Source: a virus
Taxonomy: Duplodnaviria; Heunggongvirae; Uroviricota; Caudoviricetes
IMG/VR virus record: IMGVR_UViG_3300046820_001896
Length of the DNA: 64,000 nt
Direction: 5' to 3' (one strand)
Shown: positions 51,004 through 59,266 of the stretch, piece by piece
How the letters are laid out: the number at the start of each line of letters is the position of its first letter
Position numbering within the stretch: position 1 is the first letter of the stretch
Notes under the pieces: model-generated
The model's input: only the letters and a program-made list of their open reading frames with translations
Database searches by the model: none
Told to the model about the DNA's origin: nothing
Translations under genes and position numbers: made by a program

Positions 51004-52095
51004 ATGTCTGTCATAAACGTAAGTTTAGAAGATACATTCGAACAATGGAGAATTAAGACTAATCAGCTTGGTTCTACCATTGGTGATGCAGCTTCTCTTC
51101 AAACAACTTCAACAAATTTAGTTGCAGCAATCAATGAAGTTCGCAGTAATGCGGTCGTTGATGGTATCGTCACGACTTATGGCAATATATTTCAAATTAA
51201 TATTGATGAAGGCGATTCAGCTGAATTAATATTAGATTTGGACGGTAACTTAACATTAGCTGGTGATTTAATTGCTGACGTTACAGGTAACCTAAATGGT
51301 AATGCTAATACAGCAACGAAACTTCGTAATGGTCGTATTATCTCTATTACTGGTGATGCGACATGGGATGTAGTATTTGATGGATCTGCTAATGCAACCG
51401 GTCAATTGCAAATCAATCCAACAGGTGTTGTACCAGGAACATTTACTAAAGTTACTGTTGATGGAGATGGTAGAATATATGAAGGTTTTGATTTAGAAGA
51501 TACTGATGTTATTGCTGCTCTTGGATATACACCAGTAAGTGAAGATGCAGGTTATGATAATCCAAGTTGGCTGACTTCTATTAATGGTAATAAAATTAAT
51601 AGTGCAAGCAATATTACAATTGCTAACTTAACTGTTGGAAGTAGAGTATATCTTGGAAACGGTTCTGCAACTGCTCCAAGTATCGGGTTTTCTTCTGATG
51701 CTGCTCAAGATACTGGAATTTATTGGGGTGGAGATGGTTACACTTTCTTCACCAACAATGGTGTAAAAAGCGGTGAGATTCAACCTGGCGGAAACTTAGT
51801 GATGGTTGGTAACGTTGGTGGTTATTCAGATATTCGTCTTAAAAGGGATATTGAAACTATCAAAGGCGCTCTTGATATTGTTAATCAGTTAAGAGGCATC
51901 TATTATACGTCTATAGATACTAATGAACGTAGCGTTGGTGTTGTAGCTCAAGAAGTACAAAACAAAATTCCAGAATTAATTAGAGTTGGTGAAAATGGAA
52001 TGCTTTCAGTTTCATATGGAAACATGGGAGGTCTTCTTTTACAAGCTATCAATGAATTGACAGAGAGAGTAAAAGCTATCGAAGCTAAATTATGA
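51004..52095 (+). CDS. tail fibre/spike protein with C-terminal S74-type intramolecular chaperone domain
   Basis: C-terminal YSDIRLKRDIETIKGALDIVNQLRGIYYT...VGVVAQEVQNKIPELI...LSVSYGNMGGLLLQAINEL is the auto-cleaving chaperone module of endosialidase-type fibres. Confidence 0.8.
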   Translation: MSVINVSLEDTFEQWRIKTNQLGSTIGDAASLQTTSTNLVAAINEVRSNAVVDGIVTTYGNIFQINIDEGDSAELILDLDGNLTLAGDLIADVTGNLNGNANTATKLRNGRIISITGDATWDVVFDGSANATGQLQINPTGVVPGTFTKVTVDGDGRIYEGFDLEDTDVIAALGYTPVSEDAGYDNPSWLTSINGNKINSASNITIANLTVGSRVYLGNGSATAPSIGFSSDAAQDTGIYWGGDGYTFFTNNGVKSGEIQPGGNLVMVGNVGGYSDIRLKRDIETIKGALDIVNQLRGIYYTSIDTNERSVGVVAQEVQNKIPELIRVGENGMLSVSYGNMGGLLLQAINELTERVKAIEAKL

Positions 52096-52502
52096 CTTTA
52101 CAAACAACAGGATTAATCACTCTTAGAGATATAGCAAATGAGGCTGGGCAACCAACCTCATTTTCGCCTTCCCTATCGTGGGTTAAATCAATCGTAAAAC
52201 CCGCAAATAGACTTCCAACTAATGAGATTGACGATGTCTATGGATTTGCATATTTCCAAAAAAATTCTGAAGGCAACTGTGCTAACGGAAATTGTACAGC
52301 AAATTGTAATTGTGGAAATATTCAATGTACTAACTGCGCTATTACTGGAACAGTAAATTGTACAAACTGCGATACACAAGCTTGGTTACAACCAAATTGT
52401 AATTGTGCTTGCACATATAATTGTAACCAAACACAAATTAGCTATAACTGTGCGTGTGCTTGTGCATGCGCTTGTGCTTGTGCTGATGGTGGCGGTGGAT
52501 AA
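52092..52502 (+). CDS. Cys/Asn-rich protein (136 aa), putative substrate of the adjacent radical SAM enzyme
   Basis: ATGA-coupled to the fibre gene. Residues 1-62 have no Cys; residues 63-130 have 18 Cys, 11 of them as Asn-Cys. Ends NCACACACACACADGGGG. Confidence 0.75.
   Translation: MTLQTTGLITLRDIANEAGQPTSFSPSLSWVKSIVKPANRLPTNEIDDVYGFAYFQKNSEGNCANGNCTANCNCGNIQCTNCAITGTVNCTNCDTQAWLQPNCNCACTYNCNQTQISYNCACACACACACADGGGG
52449..52484 (+). repeat. (TGY-GCN)6 hexanucleotide coding repeat = (Cys-Ala)6
   Basis: tgt gcg tgt gct tgt gca tgc gct tgt gct tgt gct, read directly. Confidence 0.95.
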
Positions 52503-52523
52503 ATAGTTATTTGAGGCGATATT

Positions 52524-53957
52524 ATGATATTTGAAATTTTAGCAGAACGCAGTGAAAAAGATAGAAAAACATTTTTTTACGATAATATAAAAAATGTCTT
52601 ATCTTCAGAGGATGGTTTCATATTTAGTGTGGAAAATAAAAAAACACACAATCATATTGCTATACCATTTTCTAAAAAATCCCCATTGAAAAAATCAAAG
52701 AATATTACAAAACTAAAGATCCAAATGGGTCTTTCGTGTAACTATTCTTGCGACTATTGTTCTCAAAAGTTTGTTGGTCGTCCACCAGAAACCAATAAAA
52801 AAGACATTGATGACTTTATGAAAAAGTTAGAGGTGTTAGAATTCACAGAAGAACAAGGTTTATCAGTAGAATTTTGGGGAGGAGAGCCATTCGTTTATTG
52901 GAAAACTATGAAGCCTCTCGCAGAAGCTATTATGGAAAAGTTTTCTCATTGGAAAAATAGACCTAAGTTTTCAGTGATCACAAACGGTTCTATCTTAACA
53001 AGAGACATTTGTGCTTGGTTATATTACATGGGGTTTTATGTTTCAATTAGTCATGACGGTCCAGGGCAAAGTGTCAGAGGTCCTGATCCATTCGAAGACG
53101 AAGAAGCAAAAAAGATCGTATTAGAATTTTACAAAATAATGAAGCCACAAGGTAGAATTAGTTTTAATTCTATGCTTAATTCTAAAAATAAAAATCGGAA
53201 AGCAATTCACGAATGGTTTATCAATTTTACTGGAGATCCCGAAGTTCCTTTAGGAGAAGGTGCTTTAGTTGATGCATATGATTTAGATGGTATGAATAAT
53301 TCACTATCTACTAAAGAAGAACATTTTGAATTTAGAAGAAATTCTTTTAATGATATTAGATCGAATAATGGTTATATTGGATTTGGAACTATATTACAAA
53401 AAATAGATGGTTTTACTAATTCAGTGATGAATCAACTACCAGCTTCTGGATTAGGACAAAAGTGTGGAATGGATGATCAACATGTTTTAGCGATTGATAT
53501 GAAAGGCAATGTATTAACTTGTCAAAATGTATCTGCTGTTGAAACTGCAATGAATGGTGAATCTCATTTAGGCGGAAACTTAGATGACTACGATAATGTA
53601 GAGTTAAAATCTTCTACTCATTGGGCAAATAGAGAAGAGTGTTCAAAGTGCCCAGTTTTGCATCTATGCAAAGGTTCTTGTATGTTTTTAGATGGTCAGT
53701 TTTGGAAAACAACATGCGATAATGCTTATTCTGATAACATTTCACTTTTTGCTTTAGCATTCGAAAAGATGACATCAGGGTATATTCCATTGTACATAAA
53801 TAGTAATGAATTATCCCCAGAAAGAAAAGATATTTGGGGAACAATATTAAGCCATAAAGAAGAACCTACTAAAAAAATTATTCCTATTATTGCTGTAAGC
53901 GAAAAAACAGTATTAAATGATGTAGAAGTCTATACACAAGCAAAGGTAACACAATGA
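52524..53957 (+). CDS. radical SAM enzyme with C-terminal SPASM domain (peptide-maturase / anSME-like)
   Basis: C72-x3-C76-x2-C79 (SCNYSCDYC), GGEPF, VITNGS. SPASM signature C314-x13-G-x4-C333 and C373-x2-C376-x5-C382-x3-C386, then C398. RBS gagg. Confidence 0.88.
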   Translation: MIFEILAERSEKDRKTFFYDNIKNVLSSEDGFIFSVENKKTHNHIAIPFSKKSPLKKSKNITKLKIQMGLSCNYSCDYCSQKFVGRPPETNKKDIDDFMKKLEVLEFTEEQGLSVEFWGGEPFVYWKTMKPLAEAIMEKFSHWKNRPKFSVITNGSILTRDICAWLYYMGFYVSISHDGPGQSVRGPDPFEDEEAKKIVLEFYKIMKPQGRISFNSMLNSKNKNRKAIHEWFINFTGDPEVPLGEGALVDAYDLDGMNNSLSTKEEHFEFRRNSFNDIRSNNGYIGFGTILQKIDGFTNSVMNQLPASGLGQKCGMDDQHVLAIDMKGNVLTCQNVSAVETAMNGESHLGGNLDDYDNVELKSSTHWANREECSKCPVLHLCKGSCMFLDGQFWKTTCDNAYSDNISLFALAFEKMTSGYIPLYINSNELSPERKDIWGTILSHKEEPTKKIIPIIAVSEKTVLNDVEVYTQAKVTQ

Positions 53958-54274
53958 TATTAATTGATGTAGAAAGTCAAAATTTGCCTGAATTAATTCG
54001 TTTATATAAGACTATTCCTTATGTTGTCCAAATAAGATGCAATAAAATATTAAGACAGCATTATAAAGATTTTGTAGGAGAAGATGGTTTGTATGTTGCA
54101 TGTTTAGTGCAGGTGAAGTCAGGCGAAGACAAATATTTAAAGTTTGAAGATATCTTATCTAAAGAGGTGTGGGATGATCCCATGCAATATCAATATTGTC
54201 TGCAGAATATGAAATTAAAAATAGATGATTACATAGAAAATGATGTTCTTCCAAAAACACCATATAGCGAGTAA
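53954..54274 (+). CDS. small protein, paralogue A of a tandem pair (106 aa)
   Basis: ATGA overlap with the rSAM gene. Shares NL..L......V.Q.R....L.Q...D.VG.DG....CL and K..IDDYI..D..P with the next ORF. Confidence 0.65.
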   Translation: MILIDVESQNLPELIRLYKTIPYVVQIRCNKILRQHYKDFVGEDGLYVACLVQVKSGEDKYLKFEDILSKEVWDDPMQYQYCLQNMKLKIDDYIENDVLPKTPYSE

Positions 54275-54276
54275 TT

Positions 54277-54573
54277 ATGGAAACACCTAATTTATTAACT
54301 TTAGTAAATCGTCTTAGACAAACTGAACATGTTACGCAAGTTAGATATCACCAAGTTTTAAAACAACGTTTTAGAGATTTAGTTGGAGTAGATGGTATTT
54401 CAATTGTATGTTTACTTACTAATAAAGCTAATCCTGAAAATTTTGTGAAAATTGTAACTATTTTAGAAGCTTCAGTAATTGAGAATTTAGAACGACATGA
54501 TGCTATCATAGAAGATATTAAAACAAGAATCGATGATTATATCATCAGAGATATAAGGCCACCAAAATTCTAA
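54277..54573 (+). CDS. small protein, paralogue B of the tandem pair (98 aa)
   Basis: See paralogue A. 2-nt gap. Confidence 0.65.
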   Translation: METPNLLTLVNRLRQTEHVTQVRYHQVLKQRFRDLVGVDGISIVCLLTNKANPENFVKIVTILEASVIENLERHDAIIEDIKTRIDDYIIRDIRPPKF

Positions 54574-55307
54574 TGTTAACAGATCAAGAAATTAATGACT
54601 ATTACGATAGTCTTGTGCCAGTTATGCCAAGACCAGAAGATCGTGTCGTAGATATGTCATTTAAAAATACTAATACCAACATTCTAATATCTGCCGGTAG
54701 ATTATTAGCTGTTGCCAATTATTCTGCAAGCGTAAAAGCATTAGCAGAATTTAATAAATCTAATATTTTTACATTTCAATTAGTAGGAATGGAAGAACGT
54801 CCAAATTTATATTTTCAAAAAAATAAATGTTGGAGAATTCGTGTTACTGAAGATGGTAAAGCTTGGCAAGATTCGCCTAATATTGAATCAATCGAACAAT
54901 TATATGATTTTATTTTAATCTCTCAAAAAGCTGCAGTCTTAGATGTTATTCATCGTCGTTTAGATATGAATAGACGTAGAGAAATTAAAGCTGCACAAGG
55001 TCAAAATCACATCTATTTTGCAAAATATTTAGAAGCAAAAGAAATCCTTGAAAAAGGAATTACTGAAGATCCTATTTGTAAATATCCATTTGTTACTGGA
55101 TATGCTGATTTAGTCGGAATGGATATTGTAGAAGCATCTAAGCGCATTAAATTTAAGTATGAAACTCGTGCATCATTTTTAGCAGAAAATGAAACGCTTA
55201 GATTAAAATATACTGCATTCGTTAAACAGCAAACTACTCTGGAAGATTTAGGTGCTGTGTTAGAACAATTTAAAGCTGAAAGCACAAAGTACGGCGATTC
55301 ACTATGA
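54573..55307 (+). CDS. hypothetical protein of the cassette (244 aa)
   Basis: TAATG overlap upstream and ATGA overlap downstream. Confidence 0.65.
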   Translation: MLTDQEINDYYDSLVPVMPRPEDRVVDMSFKNTNTNILISAGRLLAVANYSASVKALAEFNKSNIFTFQLVGMEERPNLYFQKNKCWRIRVTEDGKAWQDSPNIESIEQLYDFILISQKAAVLDVIHRRLDMNRRREIKAAQGQNHIYFAKYLEAKEILEKGITEDPICKYPFVTGYADLVGMDIVEASKRIKFKYETRASFLAENETLRLKYTAFVKQQTTLEDLGAVLEQFKAESTKYGDSL

Positions 55308-56425
55308 GCACTATATTTTATAATAGTTATGATATCTTCGTAAATGAAGCATATCATGAAAAACGCAATCAAATTCCAGGTGGTCATGCATTTGGTGGTT
55401 ATTTTCAATTATTTTCTAGCAATATTACATCTATTGACAGAACGAATACATTTAGTATACCACTAAAGACTACTGTATTACCTCATCTTCAAATGCCAAA
55501 AATGAGAACATTCACTAAATCATTTAGTGATATTTGTGATGATAGAGCCATTGAATTGATGAATAAAGCTAAGACAGATAATCGTAAGATTGCGGTTATG
55601 TACAGCGGAGGAATTGATTCTACTGTTATTCTGTGTGCTTTATTAAAGAACTGCACAGAACAAGATTTAAAAAACCATGTAATTGTGCTTTTGACAGATC
55701 ATAGTATTTTAGAAAATCCTAATTTTTATAATGACTATATTATCAAAAAGTTTGAATGTGTTTCAAGTTATAGATTTCCATATTTCCTAGGGAATGATGA
55801 TTACATCGTAATTTCTGGTGAAAATGCAGATCAATTGTTTGGTTCACAAGTAGTTGCTAAATTTATTGCATATCGTTCGTTTGATTATTTGTTTACTCCA
55901 TTAGATCAAGCTGCTGGGGATATCATTGATTGGATGACTATGAAATTGCAAGATGAATATAAAAAATATGCGCCTTATTATTGGCAAATGTTTAGACATC
56001 TTTGCAATGCTGCTCCGATTCCTATTGATAACGTATATAAATTTTTCTGGTGGATTAACTTTACAAACAAATGGCAATCAGTATATGTTCGTATTTTACC
56101 ATACGCTAAAAATAGAAGTAATATTAAATTAGAAGATAATTACACTACGTTTTTCTGCCCGCAAGATTTCCAATTGTGGTCATTAAATAATCCAGATAAT
56201 CTAGTAAAAGAATCTTTAGATAATGTAAAATATATCGCAAAAGATTATATTTTAGATTTTAATGGAGATCAATCTTACTATAAAAAACCTAAGATTGGTA
56301 GCTTAACTAATATTGTGAAGCAAAAAGAAATTGTTATGTTATTAAATGATGATATGACATTTACAAATGACTACCCAGATAGTCAACACTGGAATGAAAC
56401 AAACACTTTTTCGGAGATGATGTAA
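55304..56425 (+). CDS. PP-loop ATP pyrophosphatase, asparagine synthetase B synthetase-domain-like (lasso-cyclase-like)
   Basis: IAVMYSGGIDST (SGGxDS, residues 101-106) and ISGENADQLFG (AsnB GEGADELFGG). No N-terminal glutaminase Cys. Confidence 0.7.
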   Translation: MSTIFYNSYDIFVNEAYHEKRNQIPGGHAFGGYFQLFSSNITSIDRTNTFSIPLKTTVLPHLQMPKMRTFTKSFSDICDDRAIELMNKAKTDNRKIAVMYSGGIDSTVILCALLKNCTEQDLKNHVIVLLTDHSILENPNFYNDYIIKKFECVSSYRFPYFLGNDDYIVISGENADQLFGSQVVAKFIAYRSFDYLFTPLDQAAGDIIDWMTMKLQDEYKKYAPYYWQMFRHLCNAAPIPIDNVYKFFWWINFTNKWQSVYVRILPYAKNRSNIKLEDNYTTFFCPQDFQLWSLNNPDNLVKESLDNVKYIAKDYILDFNGDQSYYKKPKIGSLTNIVKQKEIVMLLNDDMTFTNDYPDSQHWNETNTFSEMM

Positions 56426-57069
56426 TGATTATTGAAAACAAGATTGATGTGCTAGATACGATGTATCCTTGTTATGCTGAAAAAGTAGTAAATGCATTAT
56501 ATCACTCTAAAGCATATTGTACATTATATGGATATATTATGTCAGGAGAAGTTACATTTCCTAATGGAAGTGTAGCTGTAGAAGGGCAATATTTTTGTTA
56601 TTGGACTGGTGAAGGTGATTCTATTAGAACTACTGGTGAAGTTTACATATTCACACGCTTTGGATTCAAAGGACAAAACACCATTGGTGGTCCAATTGAA
56701 GAAAGCGGTCGTTTAGTTTATATAGATTCTTGTTCTGATAGTTTATTGGTGTATCCTCCTAGAATGGGAGATCCATCTTTAAACTTATTACAATTTCCTT
56801 CTGCTGTCAAACAATCGTATCATATCCATCCGAGCATTAGACTTGGAGTAGTTGTAAAAGGTAAAGGATATGCTTGTATCAAAAAAGCATATGAAGAAGA
56901 ACAAATTGAATTAAAGCCAGGTGTTATGTTCTGTATAGAAGAAAGAGAACAACATCGTTTTATGACAACATACGATGAAATGACAGTTATAGCATTCCAT
57001 CCAGACGGTGATTGGGGTCCAACTGATCATAATCACACAATGTTAAACAGAACATATATTACGAAATAA
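56425..57069 (+). CDS. cupin-fold protein (tentative)
   Basis: SYHIHPSIRLGVVVKGKG and KPGVMFCIEEREQHRF resemble the two cupin motifs. TAATG overlap. Confidence 0.45.
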   Translation: MIIENKIDVLDTMYPCYAEKVVNALYHSKAYCTLYGYIMSGEVTFPNGSVAVEGQYFCYWTGEGDSIRTTGEVYIFTRFGFKGQNTIGGPIEESGRLVYIDSCSDSLLVYPPRMGDPSLNLLQFPSAVKQSYHIHPSIRLGVVVKGKGYACIKKAYEEEQIELKPGVMFCIEEREQHRFMTTYDEMTVIAFHPDGDWGPTDHNHTMLNRTYITK

Positions 57070-57081
57070 TCGGAGAAAAAT

Positions 57082-57441
57082 ATGGCAGCGCCAAATATCG
57101 TTAACGTTTCAAACATTACTGGAAAAACAGCTGTAATGTTTGTTACTACATCTGCGCAAGATCTTATCACAAATCCTGCATCTAGCAATAAAGTTTTAAA
57201 ACTAAATAGTTTGACTATTGCTAACGTTAACGGAACTGCAGCTGCATCTGTGACTGTTAGTATTTTTAGAAGTTCATCAGAGTATAAACTTGCACATACT
57301 GTTTTCGTTCCAGCAAATGCTACTTTAGTTGTAGTATCAAAGGATAGTGGAATTTATTTAGAAGAAGGCGATAGTTTACGCATTGTCGGATCAGCAAATA
57401 ATTATTTGCATGCAGTATGTGGATATGAGAGCATTAGTTAA
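57082..57441 (+). CDS. small beta-rich structural protein (119 aa), distant paralogue of 62650-62991
   Basis: RBS ggag. Shared VSNIT.K start and L.IANV...V.VS......Y...V.V.PN.S pattern. Confidence 0.6.
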   Translation: MAAPNIVNVSNITGKTAVMFVTTSAQDLITNPASSNKVLKLNSLTIANVNGTAAASVTVSIFRSSSEYKLAHTVFVPANATLVVVSKDSGIYLEEGDSLRIVGSANNYLHAVCGYESIS

Positions 57442-58073
57442 TGTCTTTACGCAACAAAGGTAAAGCTGGTTATATTGGATACGACCGTGTTAGTAGTCCT
57501 GATGTTGGAAGCGGTATATGGAACTTAAACCAACATCACACAGCTGTATCTGATTATAGTTGGGCTGGTCAGTCTGTATACACAAACTATGATGGAAATT
57601 TAAATGGTTTTACTGTTAGCGGAGCTACTACTAGCAGTAATGCCATATATGTTCCAGGAAATAGTTATGCATATAGAGATATGATATCTCCGTTCACTAG
57701 TTTATTATTTAAAACAATGACTTTTGAAGTTTATATTAGCGGCGGAGTATGTGGTGTATTAATTGGAAGTTCTACTGCCGGTAGAGGACCTTTATTAAAA
57801 CTAGATGCACGTGGCGGCAGTAATTATAGCGGTATGATGTTCCAAACTTCTTGGACTGTTAGAGGTGATCCTCCAGTTACCGGTGTGCAATTACCAGCGA
57901 ATTCATGGGTACCTGTGCGACTAGAAGTTAATAATGCGATGCGTATTGACTGGTCTGCAAATAATAGGTATGATCGTCAACCTATTCTTTTATCTGGTCC
58001 ATTTATTACATTCCTTGGATTAGGCGGCGGCGGTTATTTTAGAAATATTAGAGTTTATAATGGTGTATCATAA
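57441..58073 (+). CDS. structural protein with GIWNLNQ N-terminal motif (210 aa)
   Basis: TAATG overlap. GSGIWNLNQHH shared with GIWHLKQVG of the next ORF. Confidence 0.6.
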   Translation: MSLRNKGKAGYIGYDRVSSPDVGSGIWNLNQHHTAVSDYSWAGQSVYTNYDGNLNGFTVSGATTSSNAIYVPGNSYAYRDMISPFTSLLFKTMTFEVYISGGVCGVLIGSSTAGRGPLLKLDARGGSNYSGMMFQTSWTVRGDPPVTGVQLPANSWVPVRLEVNNAMRIDWSANNRYDRQPILLSGPFITFLGLGGGGYFRNIRVYNGVS

Positions 58074-59266
58074 TGTATAACGGCGGAATATTTGGTAAAA
58101 AAAATTATCCAAACGTTTTTAATGCTAATGGTATATGGCATTTAAAACAAGTTGGGGATTTTATACATCGTGGTGAATGGTATTTTGCAAGAAGCGCAAC
58201 TGTTAATGCTACTTCATTTTTAGAAGGTGATACTATCACTGTTACAATTAATGCTCCAAGCTTACCAGACGGTACAAAACTATATTGGACTATTAATACT
58301 GTTTCAGGAACTATTCGTACAGATGATTTCGATAATCGTATTTTGAATGGTCCGCTTTCTATTATTAATGGAAAAGATACGACTAGTAGAAAATTAGAAA
58401 CAAGTAAACAAGGAGATGGTAATAGATCATTTACTATTGCTATTAGAACTGAATCTGTAGAAGGTCCAATTATTGCAACTACTCCTGTTTTAACACTAGA
58501 CGACGTAGCTCGTGGCGGTAATGCCATTTTTGATAGAGGTGGATATCGATATCATAAATTTACTTCTTCTGGTAATTTCCTTTGTAATCGTTCTCTCGGT
58601 TTAACTGTATTTGCAGTTGGCGGAGGCGGTGGCGGTGGCGGTAATGGTGGAGGTGGCGGCGGTGGCGGAGGTATCGTATATACAAATATCTCTGTTGGAG
58701 CTGGAACTTATTTTATTGGAATAGGTGGAGGAGGAAGCGCAGCTCCTAATGGTAGTGTACACGGAGGAAACGGTGGAGCTACCACATTTCAAGGATTTAT
58801 AACTGCTAATGGCGGTGGCGGTGGTGGCTCTCGAGACACAGATCGTAACGGTTATTATGGTGGTTCAGGTGGTGGTGGATCTAGTAATGGTGGAGGAGGT
58901 GGCGGTACTCCTGGCCAAGGTAATAATGGTGGTAATGGTATTATTGCTGGTTCTGGTGAAGTCCAATCTACTGGCGGTGGTGGCGGTGGATATGGCGGTG
59001 GTGGACAAAACGGTGCTGCTAAAGATGCTGGTAATGGTGGACCAGGAGGTGCATTTGATCCAACTGCCGACGGTACTGCAGAATATTATTCTGGCGGCGG
59101 AGGTGGAGGTAGAACTGTTTTCGGTACTACTGGTTCAAATGGTCAAGGGCAAGGTGTCAATAGAGGTGGAGGAGGTAAAGGCGGTTCTGGAGGATCGACT
59201 TCATTTGCTGCTCAAGCTGGAGACACAGGCTATTGTGTAATTCGTTATTTGATTCCGAGTAATTAA
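58073..59266 (+). CDS. glycine-rich domain protein (397 aa)
   Basis: N-terminal GIWHLKQ motif. C-terminal half with G7NG9 and repeated GGGGxG/NGG tracts interrupted by short beta-like segments (IVYTNISVGAGTYFIGIGGGG). Confidence 0.7.
   Translation: MYNGGIFGKKNYPNVFNANGIWHLKQVGDFIHRGEWYFARSATVNATSFLEGDTITVTINAPSLPDGTKLYWTINTVSGTIRTDDFDNRILNGPLSIINGKDTTSRKLETSKQGDGNRSFTIAIRTESVEGPIIATTPVLTLDDVARGGNAIFDRGGYRYHKFTSSGNFLCNRSLGLTVFAVGGGGGGGGNGGGGGGGGGIVYTNISVGAGTYFIGIGGGGSAAPNGSVHGGNGGATTFQGFITANGGGGGGSRDTDRNGYYGGSGGGGSSNGGGGGGTPGQGNNGGNGIIAGSGEVQSTGGGGGGYGGGGQNGAAKDAGNGGPGGAFDPTADGTAEYYSGGGGGGRTVFGTTGSNGQGQGVNRGGGGKGGSGGSTSFAAQAGDTGYCVIRYLIPSN
58619..58672 (+). repeat. (GGN)18 low-complexity coding repeat
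   Basis: ggc gga ggc ggt ggc ggt ggc ggt aat ggt gga ggt ggc ggc ggt ggc gga ggt. Confidence 0.9.

Follow-up and report, generated by a model that had tools for sequence, protein, structure and literature searches.

A stand-alone synthetase domain with a predicted AsnB-type fold forms a module with an obligate partner and, often, a cupin, and shares a radical-SAM cassette in a tailed phage

Introduction

The closest described relatives of the enzyme analyzed here are the synthetases of the AsnB family. To our knowledge, every characterised synthetase domain of this family adenylates a carboxylate and then forms an amide or a lactam. We analyzed a stretch of 64,000 nucleotides from a virus of the Caudoviricetes (IMG/VR record IMGVR_UViG_3300046820_001896), called the window below, in which a 373-aa PP-loop enzyme is encoded between a 244-aa partner protein and a cupin, downstream of a gene for a radical S-adenosylmethionine (rSAM) enzyme.

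In E. coli AsnB (1ct9) and human ASNS (6gq3, 8sue, and 9b6c), the synthetase domain follows an N-terminal glutaminase domain with a Cys nucleophile. The phage enzyme, in contrast, has neither the domain nor the nucleophile, shares just 10-15% identity with these proteins at TM-scores of 0.30-0.34, and comes with an obligate separate partner and an associated cupin. The TsnB9 hydroxyamidotransferase (7ylz), beta-lactam synthetase (1jgt), and the carbapenam synthetase CarA (1q15) have small-molecule substrates in pathways of Streptomyces or Pectobacterium, and none of those pathway genes lies near the phage enzyme. All three keep an N-terminal glutaminase-like domain, which is catalytically inactive in the latter two. 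More distantly, TilS, LarE, NAD synthetase, GMP synthetase, QueC, and PAPS reductase resemble it in the P-loop motif and in the Rossmann-like core fold that binds ATP.

The McjC-type lasso cyclases, FzmA, and the TsrC-type enzymes belong to the same superfamily and act on a peptide carboxylate, either of a side chain or of the C-terminus. The TsrC-type enzymes, known from thiostrepton, are C-terminal amidotransferases of ribosomal-peptide pathways. The AsnB-like FzmA acts on C-terminal carboxylates of ribosomal peptides and gives a C-terminal hydrazide (PMC13622209). AsnB-like enzymes of the pathways for peptides that ribosomes synthesize and that are modified after translation (RiPPs) often work with a separate recognition protein and other maturases, and the window enzyme likewise shares its cassette with an rSAM/SPASM enzyme and a Cys-rich protein. 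Unlike lasso systems, the cassette has no B protein (a transglutaminase-like protease), and no RiPP recognition element was detectable in the cassette open reading frames (ORFs) with Pfam or NCBIfam. The candidate substrate (126-367 aa) also differs from a short lasso precursor with its Asp or Glu at position 7-9, in that its N-terminus is conserved and no leader peptide can be recognised in it. No NCBIfam lasso-peptide-cyclase model appeared among the weak matches of the enzyme, and no solved lasso cyclase was found in the fold searches.

Results

Sequence profiles and predicted fold of the enzyme

The enzyme, its partner, and the cupin are encoded as follows.

54573..55307, + strand: partner p244, 244 aa, upstream companion of the AsnB-like enzyme
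55304..56425, + strand: stand-alone PP-loop ATP-pyrophosphatase, 373 aa, predicted AsnB-type synthetase-domain fold, no glutaminase domain
55604..55621, + strand: PP-loop motif SGGIDS (ATP pyrophosphate-binding loop), enzyme residues 101-106, read directly
55817..55843, + strand: GENADQLFG motif, from the translation of the enzyme ORF
56425..57069, + strand: single-domain cupin, 214 aa, Pfam Cupin_2

A first-pass annotation, made from the DNA letters, had described the 373-aa protein as a glutaminase-less AsnB-type enzyme with the motifs SGGIDS and GENADQLFG and no N-terminal nucleophile Cys. Translation confirmed both motifs, of which GENADQLFG presumably corresponds to the GEGxDExFGG segment of AsnB-type enzymes. 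The absence of the nucleophile was borne out as well. Residue 2 is Ser, and this position varies over 32 homologues, with no conserved N-terminal nucleophile Cys; the length of 373 aa is that of a synthetase domain alone; and the AlphaFold2 model places merely a short strand and helices ahead of the PP-loop fold, with no Ntn-hydrolase (N-terminal nucleophile) fold.

By sequence, the enzyme fits no curated family. In Pfam, the numerically best match was ATP_bind_3, a TilS-type PP-loop family, with an E-value of 0.0015, below the cut-off, and Asn_synthase (PF00733) followed with an E-value of 0.02 (15 bits against a cut-off of 21); each match covered about 30-45 residues around the P-loop. In NCBIfam, an AsnB-type amidotransferase ranked first (E 6.8e-4), ahead of TilS, CysD, and LarE, while TIGR01536 scored 14.8 against a cut-off of 267. 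Among the PHROGs, weak matches to PAPS reductase (1.3e-4) and a QueC-like family (9.4e-4) were obtained. Across the three collections, all matches spanned about 30-80 residues and stayed well under the cut-offs. The best sequence match in the PDB was TilS (E 0.097), and when the PDB sequences were searched with the protein itself or with profiles of 32 and 102 members, the P-loop alone was matched. Over 102 family members, weak Pfam matches to Asn_synthase (31) outnumbered those to ATP_bind_3 (19), and no member had a significant Asn_synthase match (best E 0.0011). Since the profiles match the P-loop alone, the family assignment rests on the predicted structure.

The AlphaFold2 model, built from 32 homologues, was confident (pLDDT 92.1, pTM 0.90). 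Foldseek ranked ASNS, TsnB9, beta-lactam synthetase, CarA, and AsnB at the top, with E-values from 1.5e-4 to 2e-2 across about 310 columns. In the structural comparison, the values for the other families were about 8 for the GMP and NAD synthetases, 7.4 and 6.2 for TilS, 7.2 for the QueC-type nitrile synthetase, 7.0 for LarE, and 5.7 for the N-acetyl-sugar amidotransferase. The predicted fold is thus nearer to the AsnB-family synthetase domains than to other PP-loop families, and the enzyme does not show the combination of an above-cut-off family score and specific substrate-binding domains that marks the families modifying tRNA or nucleosides (TilS PF01171, QueC PF06508, ThiI, and MnmA). As modelled, the assignment as a glutaminase-less stand-alone synthetase domain, with the fold of the C-terminal domain of the class II amidotransferase AsnB, holds at the fold level. 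The AsnB-type call of the first-pass annotation is therefore upheld by the fold ranking, with sequence profiles below threshold. That annotation had also named, as evidence that would count against its call, a best profile match to a tRNA- or nucleoside-modifying PP-loop family; such a match exists nominally, in the sub-threshold ATP_bind_3 motif, but neither the structure nor the family-wide counts agree with it.

Conservation and distribution of the enzyme family

A word-indexed search gave 487 homologues; these are about 370 aa long, almost none is named, and none has a Pfam domain. With an exhaustive profile search, 1,791 clusters (50% identity) were found at an E-value of at most 1e-3, of which 712 were at 1e-30 or below. 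The conservation alignment comprised 102 members with 23-66% identity. Eight residues were invariant (R46, G102, G103, D105, S106, W249, W292, and K309), and a further eighteen were conserved in at least 90% of the members (D45, P65, S101, S134, E137, G172, D176, G180, W250, F253, W257, F283, Q290, K313, Y325, K328, K330, and S333). The conservation of the PP-loop residues and of the glycines and the Asp of GExxDQxFG across the 102 members shows that these motifs did not arise by chance. The C-terminal motifs WWxNFxxKWQ, FQxWS, and K.K.GSL are specific to the family.

The family is absent from Pfam, NCBIfam, PHROGs, and the records of cultured phages. Searches of 50,697 deposited phage records with the cassette and the enzyme, by blastn and tblastn, gave no match, and literature searches retrieved no paper on the enzyme family or the cassette. 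It is a large and uncharacterised family, distinct by its two-protein core and frequent cupin, and its module occurs in many phages, in bacteria of the Candidate Phyla Radiation (CPR), and in Bdellovibrionales, Bacteroidota, and Proteobacteria. Four members are fusions (P0241, P0255, P0259, and P0268). One carries a C-terminal GNAT acetyltransferase, and three have long, low-complexity extensions of a eukaryote-like kind; these sequences suggest that the family extends beyond bacteria and phages.

The partner and the autonomous module

Gene neighbourhoods were compared in 80 IMG/VR loci (55 after dereplication), several metagenome contigs, and 79 genome loci. The most constant neighbour of the enzyme was the partner, not the rSAM gene. 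This 244-aa ORF (54573-55307), which the first-pass annotation did not include, overlaps the enzyme start by ATGA in the window. A homologue lies directly upstream of the enzyme gene in 41 of the 55 dereplicated viral loci, with overlaps of 1-41 nt, a count that takes in one remote cluster joined by hhalign at 97% probability. Partners of this family are likewise encoded ahead of the enzyme in CPR bacteria, Bdellovibrionales, and proteobacterial prophages (hhalign 99.9%). In phages with two or three enzymes (L035 and L092), partner paralogues were present in equal number. The partner is obligate for the enzyme and translationally coupled to it.

Within the cassette clade, the mean pairwise identity was 36.7% for the partner versus 53.2% for the enzyme, so the partner evolves faster. 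About 12 of its positions are conserved in at least 70% of the sequences, none is invariant, and there is no catalytic signature; its C-terminus is unconserved apart from a hydrophobic last residue. It is predicted to fold into a small beta domain at the N-terminus and a long bundle of helices; no match to a known family and no structural relative were found. In Bacteroidota and Alphaproteobacteria, the cupin and the enzyme are joined by unrelated small proteins (c3, c5, and c33), which hhalign did not link to the partner (best probability 11.7%, for c33).

The rSAM gene was present in only 11 of the 55 dereplicated viral loci and the Cys-rich gene in 9, and among the neighbour families common to the 79 genome loci there was none of rSAM enzymes. 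Partner and enzyme, often with the cupin, form an autonomous module. As this module is far more widespread than the rSAM enzyme, it was recruited here and is not a dedicated rSAM accessory.

The cupin

As the first-pass annotation had noted, the cupin ORF overlaps the enzyme ORF in TAATG, where the stop codon TAA (56423-56425) and the start codon ATG (56425-56427) share one nucleotide, and it encodes two cupin-like motifs, HIHPSIRLGVVVKGKG at 56821-56868 and PGVMFCIEEREQHRF at 56917-56961. The Pfam match to Cupin_2 (PF07883) had an E-value of 4e-6, with 26.9 bits against a cut-off of 27.2, and most cupin homologues have a precomputed PF07883 match. No significant match to a characterised cupin was found (best PDB E-value 0.047).

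The cupin is the best-conserved gene of the trio, with 686 homologues and identities of 54-93% among the 120 matches listed. It lies adjacent and downstream of the enzyme gene in 15 of the 55 viral loci and is adjacent in 42 of the 79 genome loci; conversely, the enzyme adjoins the cupin in all three distinct cupin contexts that were looked up. In 27 homologues, the three-His site was conserved (H133 in 96%, H135 and H177 in 100%), as were R139 (100%), which sits where the canonical motif 1 has Glu, and C103 (93%). The single Cupin_2 barrel and the HxH...H ligands are shared with acireductone dioxygenase and ectoine synthase, to which the sequence matches are only weak. In contrast to these cupins, the phage protein carries an invariant Arg at the position of the motif-1 Glu ligand, an N-terminal extension of about 95 residues, and a conserved C-terminal HPDGDWGPTDHNH segment. 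In a 133-kb viral contig (L092, 3471-8403), two convergent partner-enzyme pairs flank one cupin gene, as if two synthetases shared it.

The radical-SAM cassette of the window

The window is a series of T4-type phage structural genes on the + strand, with a gp6-like baseplate wedge (phrog_219, 1.5e-171), a gp5-like hub, and a 2118-aa protein among them. The cassette directly follows an S74 fibre within the baseplate and tail-fibre region, and its upstream part comprises these features.

51004-52095, + strand: S74-chaperone tail fibre, directly preceding the cassette
52092..52502, + strand: Cys/Asn-rich protein, 136 aa, ending in ...CADGGGG, candidate cassette substrate
52524..53957, + strand: radical-SAM/SPASM peptide-maturase-like enzyme, 477 aa, with Pfam, NCBIfam, and PHROG matches
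53954-54274, + strand: small protein 1, 106 aa, between the rSAM and partner genes
54277-54573, + strand: small protein 2, 98 aa, between the rSAM and partner genes

From the fibre gene through the cupin, every gene junction either overlaps or has a gap of at most 21 nt. The G+C fraction is 0.30-0.33 at 52-56 kb, compared with 0.37-0.39 at 46-52 kb and 0.40 at 58-60 kb, a dip that is consistent with a horizontally acquired island within the tail-fibre module. Over positions 52001-58000, the fraction is 0.30-0.34, with 0.304 at 54-56 kb, and to both sides it is 0.37-0.40. Further downstream, at 58073-59266, a 397-aa protein with long poly-Gly and Gly-Asn runs (phrog_2295, 1.6e-29) resembles in composition the Gly-rich insertion of the long Cys-rich proteins described below; it is probably another fibre-like structural protein.

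The rSAM enzyme matched Pfam Radical_SAM (6.4e-9) and phrog_1802 (1.2e-63), and in NCBIfam the models PapB (1e-20), a QhpD-type enzyme (5e-19), and a SPASM domain (1.1e-8), each under the equivalog cut-off. The two small proteins are tandem paralogues with 31% identity (E 9e-21), and other rSAM cassettes have one copy (c27). They matched no Pfam, NCBIfam, or PHROG family and may serve the rSAM enzyme as a recognition protein or chaperone.

The Cys-rich protein type was seen solely alongside the rSAM enzyme, in 12 loci with 9 distinct sequences (for example, window 52092-52502; L001 6287-7378; L005 7049-7444; L013 311-1405; and L017 4684-5787). The members are 126-367 aa long, three distinct variants of 363-367 aa having a long Gly-rich insertion. 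All share the N-terminal motif MTLPASG.IS (MTL..G.I.L as the pattern conserved in the whole family), and all end in Gly, with a Gly-Gly end in 10 of the 12 loci and 7 of the 9 distinct sequences. The C-terminal portion of about 70 aa follows the pattern GNCNNGNC..NCNCGNIQC.NC.I.G.VNC.NCD...WLQ.NCNCACTYNC....SYNC.C.C.C.GG. Within these repeats, D, N, and A alternate at some homologous positions, and one Asp is invariant in the domain.

The rSAM and Cys-rich genes accompany the enzyme only where it has at least 46% identity to the window copy. In this clade the order is fixed: Cys-rich protein, rSAM enzyme, small protein, partner, enzyme, and cupin. An exception group (L030, L031, and L049) has a distant rSAM enzyme (36% identity) about 2.3 kb downstream of the enzyme gene. 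In four T4-like contigs (L001, L011, L015, and L018), the cassette lies at a non-fibre site, between PhoH or PD-(D/E)XK genes and gp59/gp32; in a Polynucleobacter prophage of the lambda-like type (L005), it immediately follows gpJ and an S74 fibre. The whole cassette moves between T4-like and lambda-like phage backbones. Pairwise identities of the enzyme and the rSAM protein correlate (Spearman 0.75), which indicates co-inheritance only. The earlier proposal that the enzyme and the cupin add a second and a third chemistry to the rSAM step thus fits the one clade in which the cassette is kept together, but it does not extend to the autonomous module, given rSAM genes in 11 of 55 loci.

Among cultured phages, rSAM homologues with 42-45% identity were found in Ralstonia phage RSP15 (L006, 6001-7341) and Achromobacter phage JWF (L007, 5956-7320), in both cases immediately after tail-fibre genes. 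Their surroundings contain neither an AsnB-like gene nor a Cys-rich protein.

Other contexts of the module

In the CPR bacteria, the module was found in an operon of a YcaO protein (3.8e-37), a nitroreductase-family protein (1.3e-18), a phosphoribosyltransferase/beta-propeller protein, the partner, and the enzyme. This operon spans several phyla, often with a sodium:solute symporter (Paceibacterota and Kaiserbacteria loci L099 3500-9100, L104, L107, and L109), and two Moranbacteria loci (L095 and L096) also have YcaO near the partner-enzyme pair. No precursor peptide was identified in the CPR YcaO operon loci.

In Mu/P2-like prophages of Undibacterium, Ralstonia, and Xanthomonas (L113 6599-8846, L116, L119, and L120), the order was the baseplate genes gpW, gpJ, and gpI, then a short protein, and immediately after it partner and enzyme. 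The short protein combines a tail-fibre N-terminus with a long poly-Pro tail and ends in ...TGG in three prophages and in ...DG in one. By its place in this gene order, the pair stands where one would expect a fibre tip or a chaperone to be encoded. In the viral contig L037, the pair lies amid several tail-fibre-like proteins, and the protein upstream has a Gly-rich tail.

Other neighbourhoods contained different enzymes. Bdellovibrionales loci encode a methyltransferase, the partner, two enzyme copies, a carrier protein (PP-binding, 1.5e-7), and a cupin. Larger viral islands include a second PP-loop protein, a fatty-acid desaturase (5.6e-20), Asp/Asn beta-hydroxylase-like proteins, a class IV aminotransferase (4e-37), methyltransferases, an alpha/beta hydrolase, and further rSAM enzymes. 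No neighbours are conserved around the Bacteroidota trio of cupin, small protein, and enzyme. When rSAM-less viral loci and cellular loci were searched for Cys-rich or precursor-like ORFs, only spurious frames were obtained.

Two further observations concern other loci of the family. The islands of the remote members L045, L050, L058, L024, and L027 recurrently have a second, shorter PP-loop protein (about 311 aa, with the motif FSGGIDSE); they also encode a fatty-acid desaturase, further rSAM enzymes, and Asp/Asn beta-hydroxylase-like proteins, and may represent a multi-enzyme pathway of large aquatic phages. In three alphaproteobacterial loci (L160 4820-5854, L165 4875-5966, and L149 3243-4256, all on the - strand), a secreted protein of 337-363 aa is divergent from a block of methyltransferases (or a second PP-loop protein), enzyme, small protein, and cupin. 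Its tail runs through a Pro-rich stretch and a Cys-Cys pair to an end rich in Gly and Asp, and the last two residues are GG in two of the three loci.

Discussion

By analogy with the AsnB family, the enzyme would bind ATP at SGGIDS and adenylate a carboxylate, giving an acyl-AMP and pyrophosphate, and a nitrogen nucleophile would then attack the acyl-AMP to form an amide or a lactam. In an enzyme that lacks a glutaminase domain, this nucleophile would be either free ammonia or an amine. Presenting or selecting the substrate is the most likely role of the partner, and the cupin would carry out a metal-dependent step on the same substrate; the invariant Arg139 suggests that the cupin also binds a carboxylate.

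We tentatively propose that the module acts on a carboxylate of a protein or peptide, which in the window would be the Gly-terminated Cys/Asn-rich protein; this is the reading that we favour, with confidence a little short of an even balance. The likeliest site would be the free C-terminal Gly carboxylate of that protein or its invariant Asp, before or after rSAM cross-links are made. Such a substrate is the most economical explanation because the partner is pair-specific and fast-evolving, because the module recurs beside peptide maturases (rSAM/SPASM and YcaO) and beside tail-fibre genes, and because the proteins encoded just upstream end in Gly or Gly-Gly. A Gly-Gly C-terminus was found in 18 of 2,178 ORF products (0.83%), and 11 of the 18 belong to the Cys-rich and the Mu/P2-like fibre-stub families. 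Read as a possible RiPP-type maturation cassette, the block has a Cys-rich precursor-like protein and an rSAM enzyme that co-occur strictly, with the AsnB-like module joining them in one clade only.

Several points weigh against this proposal. The Foldseek TM-scores were low (about 0.30-0.43), and the sequence profiles of the enzyme were under every family cut-off. Most module loci have no rSAM gene, Cys-rich ORF, or recognisable precursor within 8 kb. The co-transfer of the cassette is linkage, not a shared substrate, and the C-terminal Gly pattern comes from two protein families alone. The flanking genes of some loci encode instead a class IV aminotransferase, methyltransferases, a fatty-acid desaturase, an alpha/beta hydrolase, Asp/Asn beta-hydroxylase-like proteins, or a carrier protein, and a small-molecule or envelope chemistry would also fit such genes.

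The best-surviving alternative is that the module makes or modifies a non-protein molecule, such as a carboxylated metabolite, a sugar acid, a lipid, or an envelope polymer, and that the rSAM and Cys-rich genes are genetically linked to it in one clade with separate substrates. Its autonomy speaks for this, with 44 of the 55 dereplicated viral loci being rSAM-less and no rSAM family shared among the neighbours of the 79 genome loci, as do the Bacteroidota trio that stands without conserved neighbours, the enzymes of the viral islands (aminotransferase, methyltransferases, hydrolase, desaturase, and Asp/Asn beta-hydroxylase-like proteins), the carrier protein and methyltransferase of Bdellovibrionales, and the member fused to a GNAT acetyltransferase; moreover, the structural neighbours TsnB9, beta-lactam synthetase, and CarA are all small-molecule enzymes. 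However, the order and translational coupling of the cassette are unchanged across three phage backbones, the pair lies directly downstream of tail-fibre genes in unrelated phages (the window, L005, L037, and the L113 group), the CPR bacteria associate it with a YcaO operon, and a fast-evolving, pair-specific partner suits macromolecular recognition better than metabolite binding. We consider a non-protein substrate unlikely, while giving it serious weight.

A more specific form of the protein-substrate proposal, which we put forward as a long shot, is that the partner-enzyme pair is a C-terminus-activating system for tail-fibre components, in which the Gly or Gly-Gly end would be adenylated and then amidated or ligated. 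The candidates would be the Cys/Asn-rich, knot-like protein of the window and the poly-Pro fibre stubs with ...TGG ends of the Mu/P2-like prophages. In the ligation variant, that end would be joined to a different protein of the virion through an amide or isopeptide bond, with a ubiquitin-like conjugation logic carried out by PP-loop (AsnB-type) chemistry. If so, receptor-binding structures would be built post-translationally by RiPP-like enzymes, through rSAM cross-links, an amide bond, and a cupin step.

Slightly more doubtful still is the possibility that the 244-aa partner is itself the substrate or carrier, with its C-terminus or a conserved Glu being adenylated in a protein-modification system complete in itself. 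The strict one-to-one adjacency with overlapping genes, the matching paralogue numbers in L035 and L092, and a partner that has no catalytic signature or fold relative would all suit this role, and other lineages have different small proteins in that place (c3, c5, and c33). Yet the partner C-terminus is unconserved beyond its hydrophobic last residue, none of the roughly 12 positions conserved at 70% or more is invariant, and nothing sets this reading apart from the role of an adaptor.

Enzymes of the PP-loop type that modify tRNA or other nucleic acids are common in phages, and a TilS-, QueC-, MnmA-, or ThiI-type function would agree with the top Pfam E-value (ATP_bind_3), the best PDB sequence match (TilS), and the weak PHROG matches to PAPS reductase and QueC-like proteins; it is contradicted by the structure and by the family-wide counts (31 versus 19 of 102), and we regard it as very improbable. 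The least probable reading is the Asp-to-Asn logic of the first-pass annotation, in which the enzyme would convert Asp to Asn in the Cys-rich protein: carboxylate amidation is canonical AsnB chemistry and the C-terminal repeats show the D/N/A alternation, but the abundant Asn is directly encoded in every homologue and therefore needs no enzymatic explanation, no glutaminase domain, glutaminase partner, or other ammonia-generating domain is present, and the domain has a single invariant Asp.

If the AsnB-type assignment holds, the enzyme represents a widespread, unnamed branch of the AsnB superfamily, with at least 1,791 clusters at 50% identity, that works as a two- or three-protein module. 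With a small-molecule substrate, the module would be a new auxiliary pathway that is very common in aquatic phages, CPR bacteria, and Bdellovibrionales. With the protein or peptide substrate that we favour, AsnB-like enzymology would gain a new class of substrate as well as a new partner architecture, and the idea that phages tailor their fibre or receptor-binding proteins by RiPP-type chemistry would become testable.

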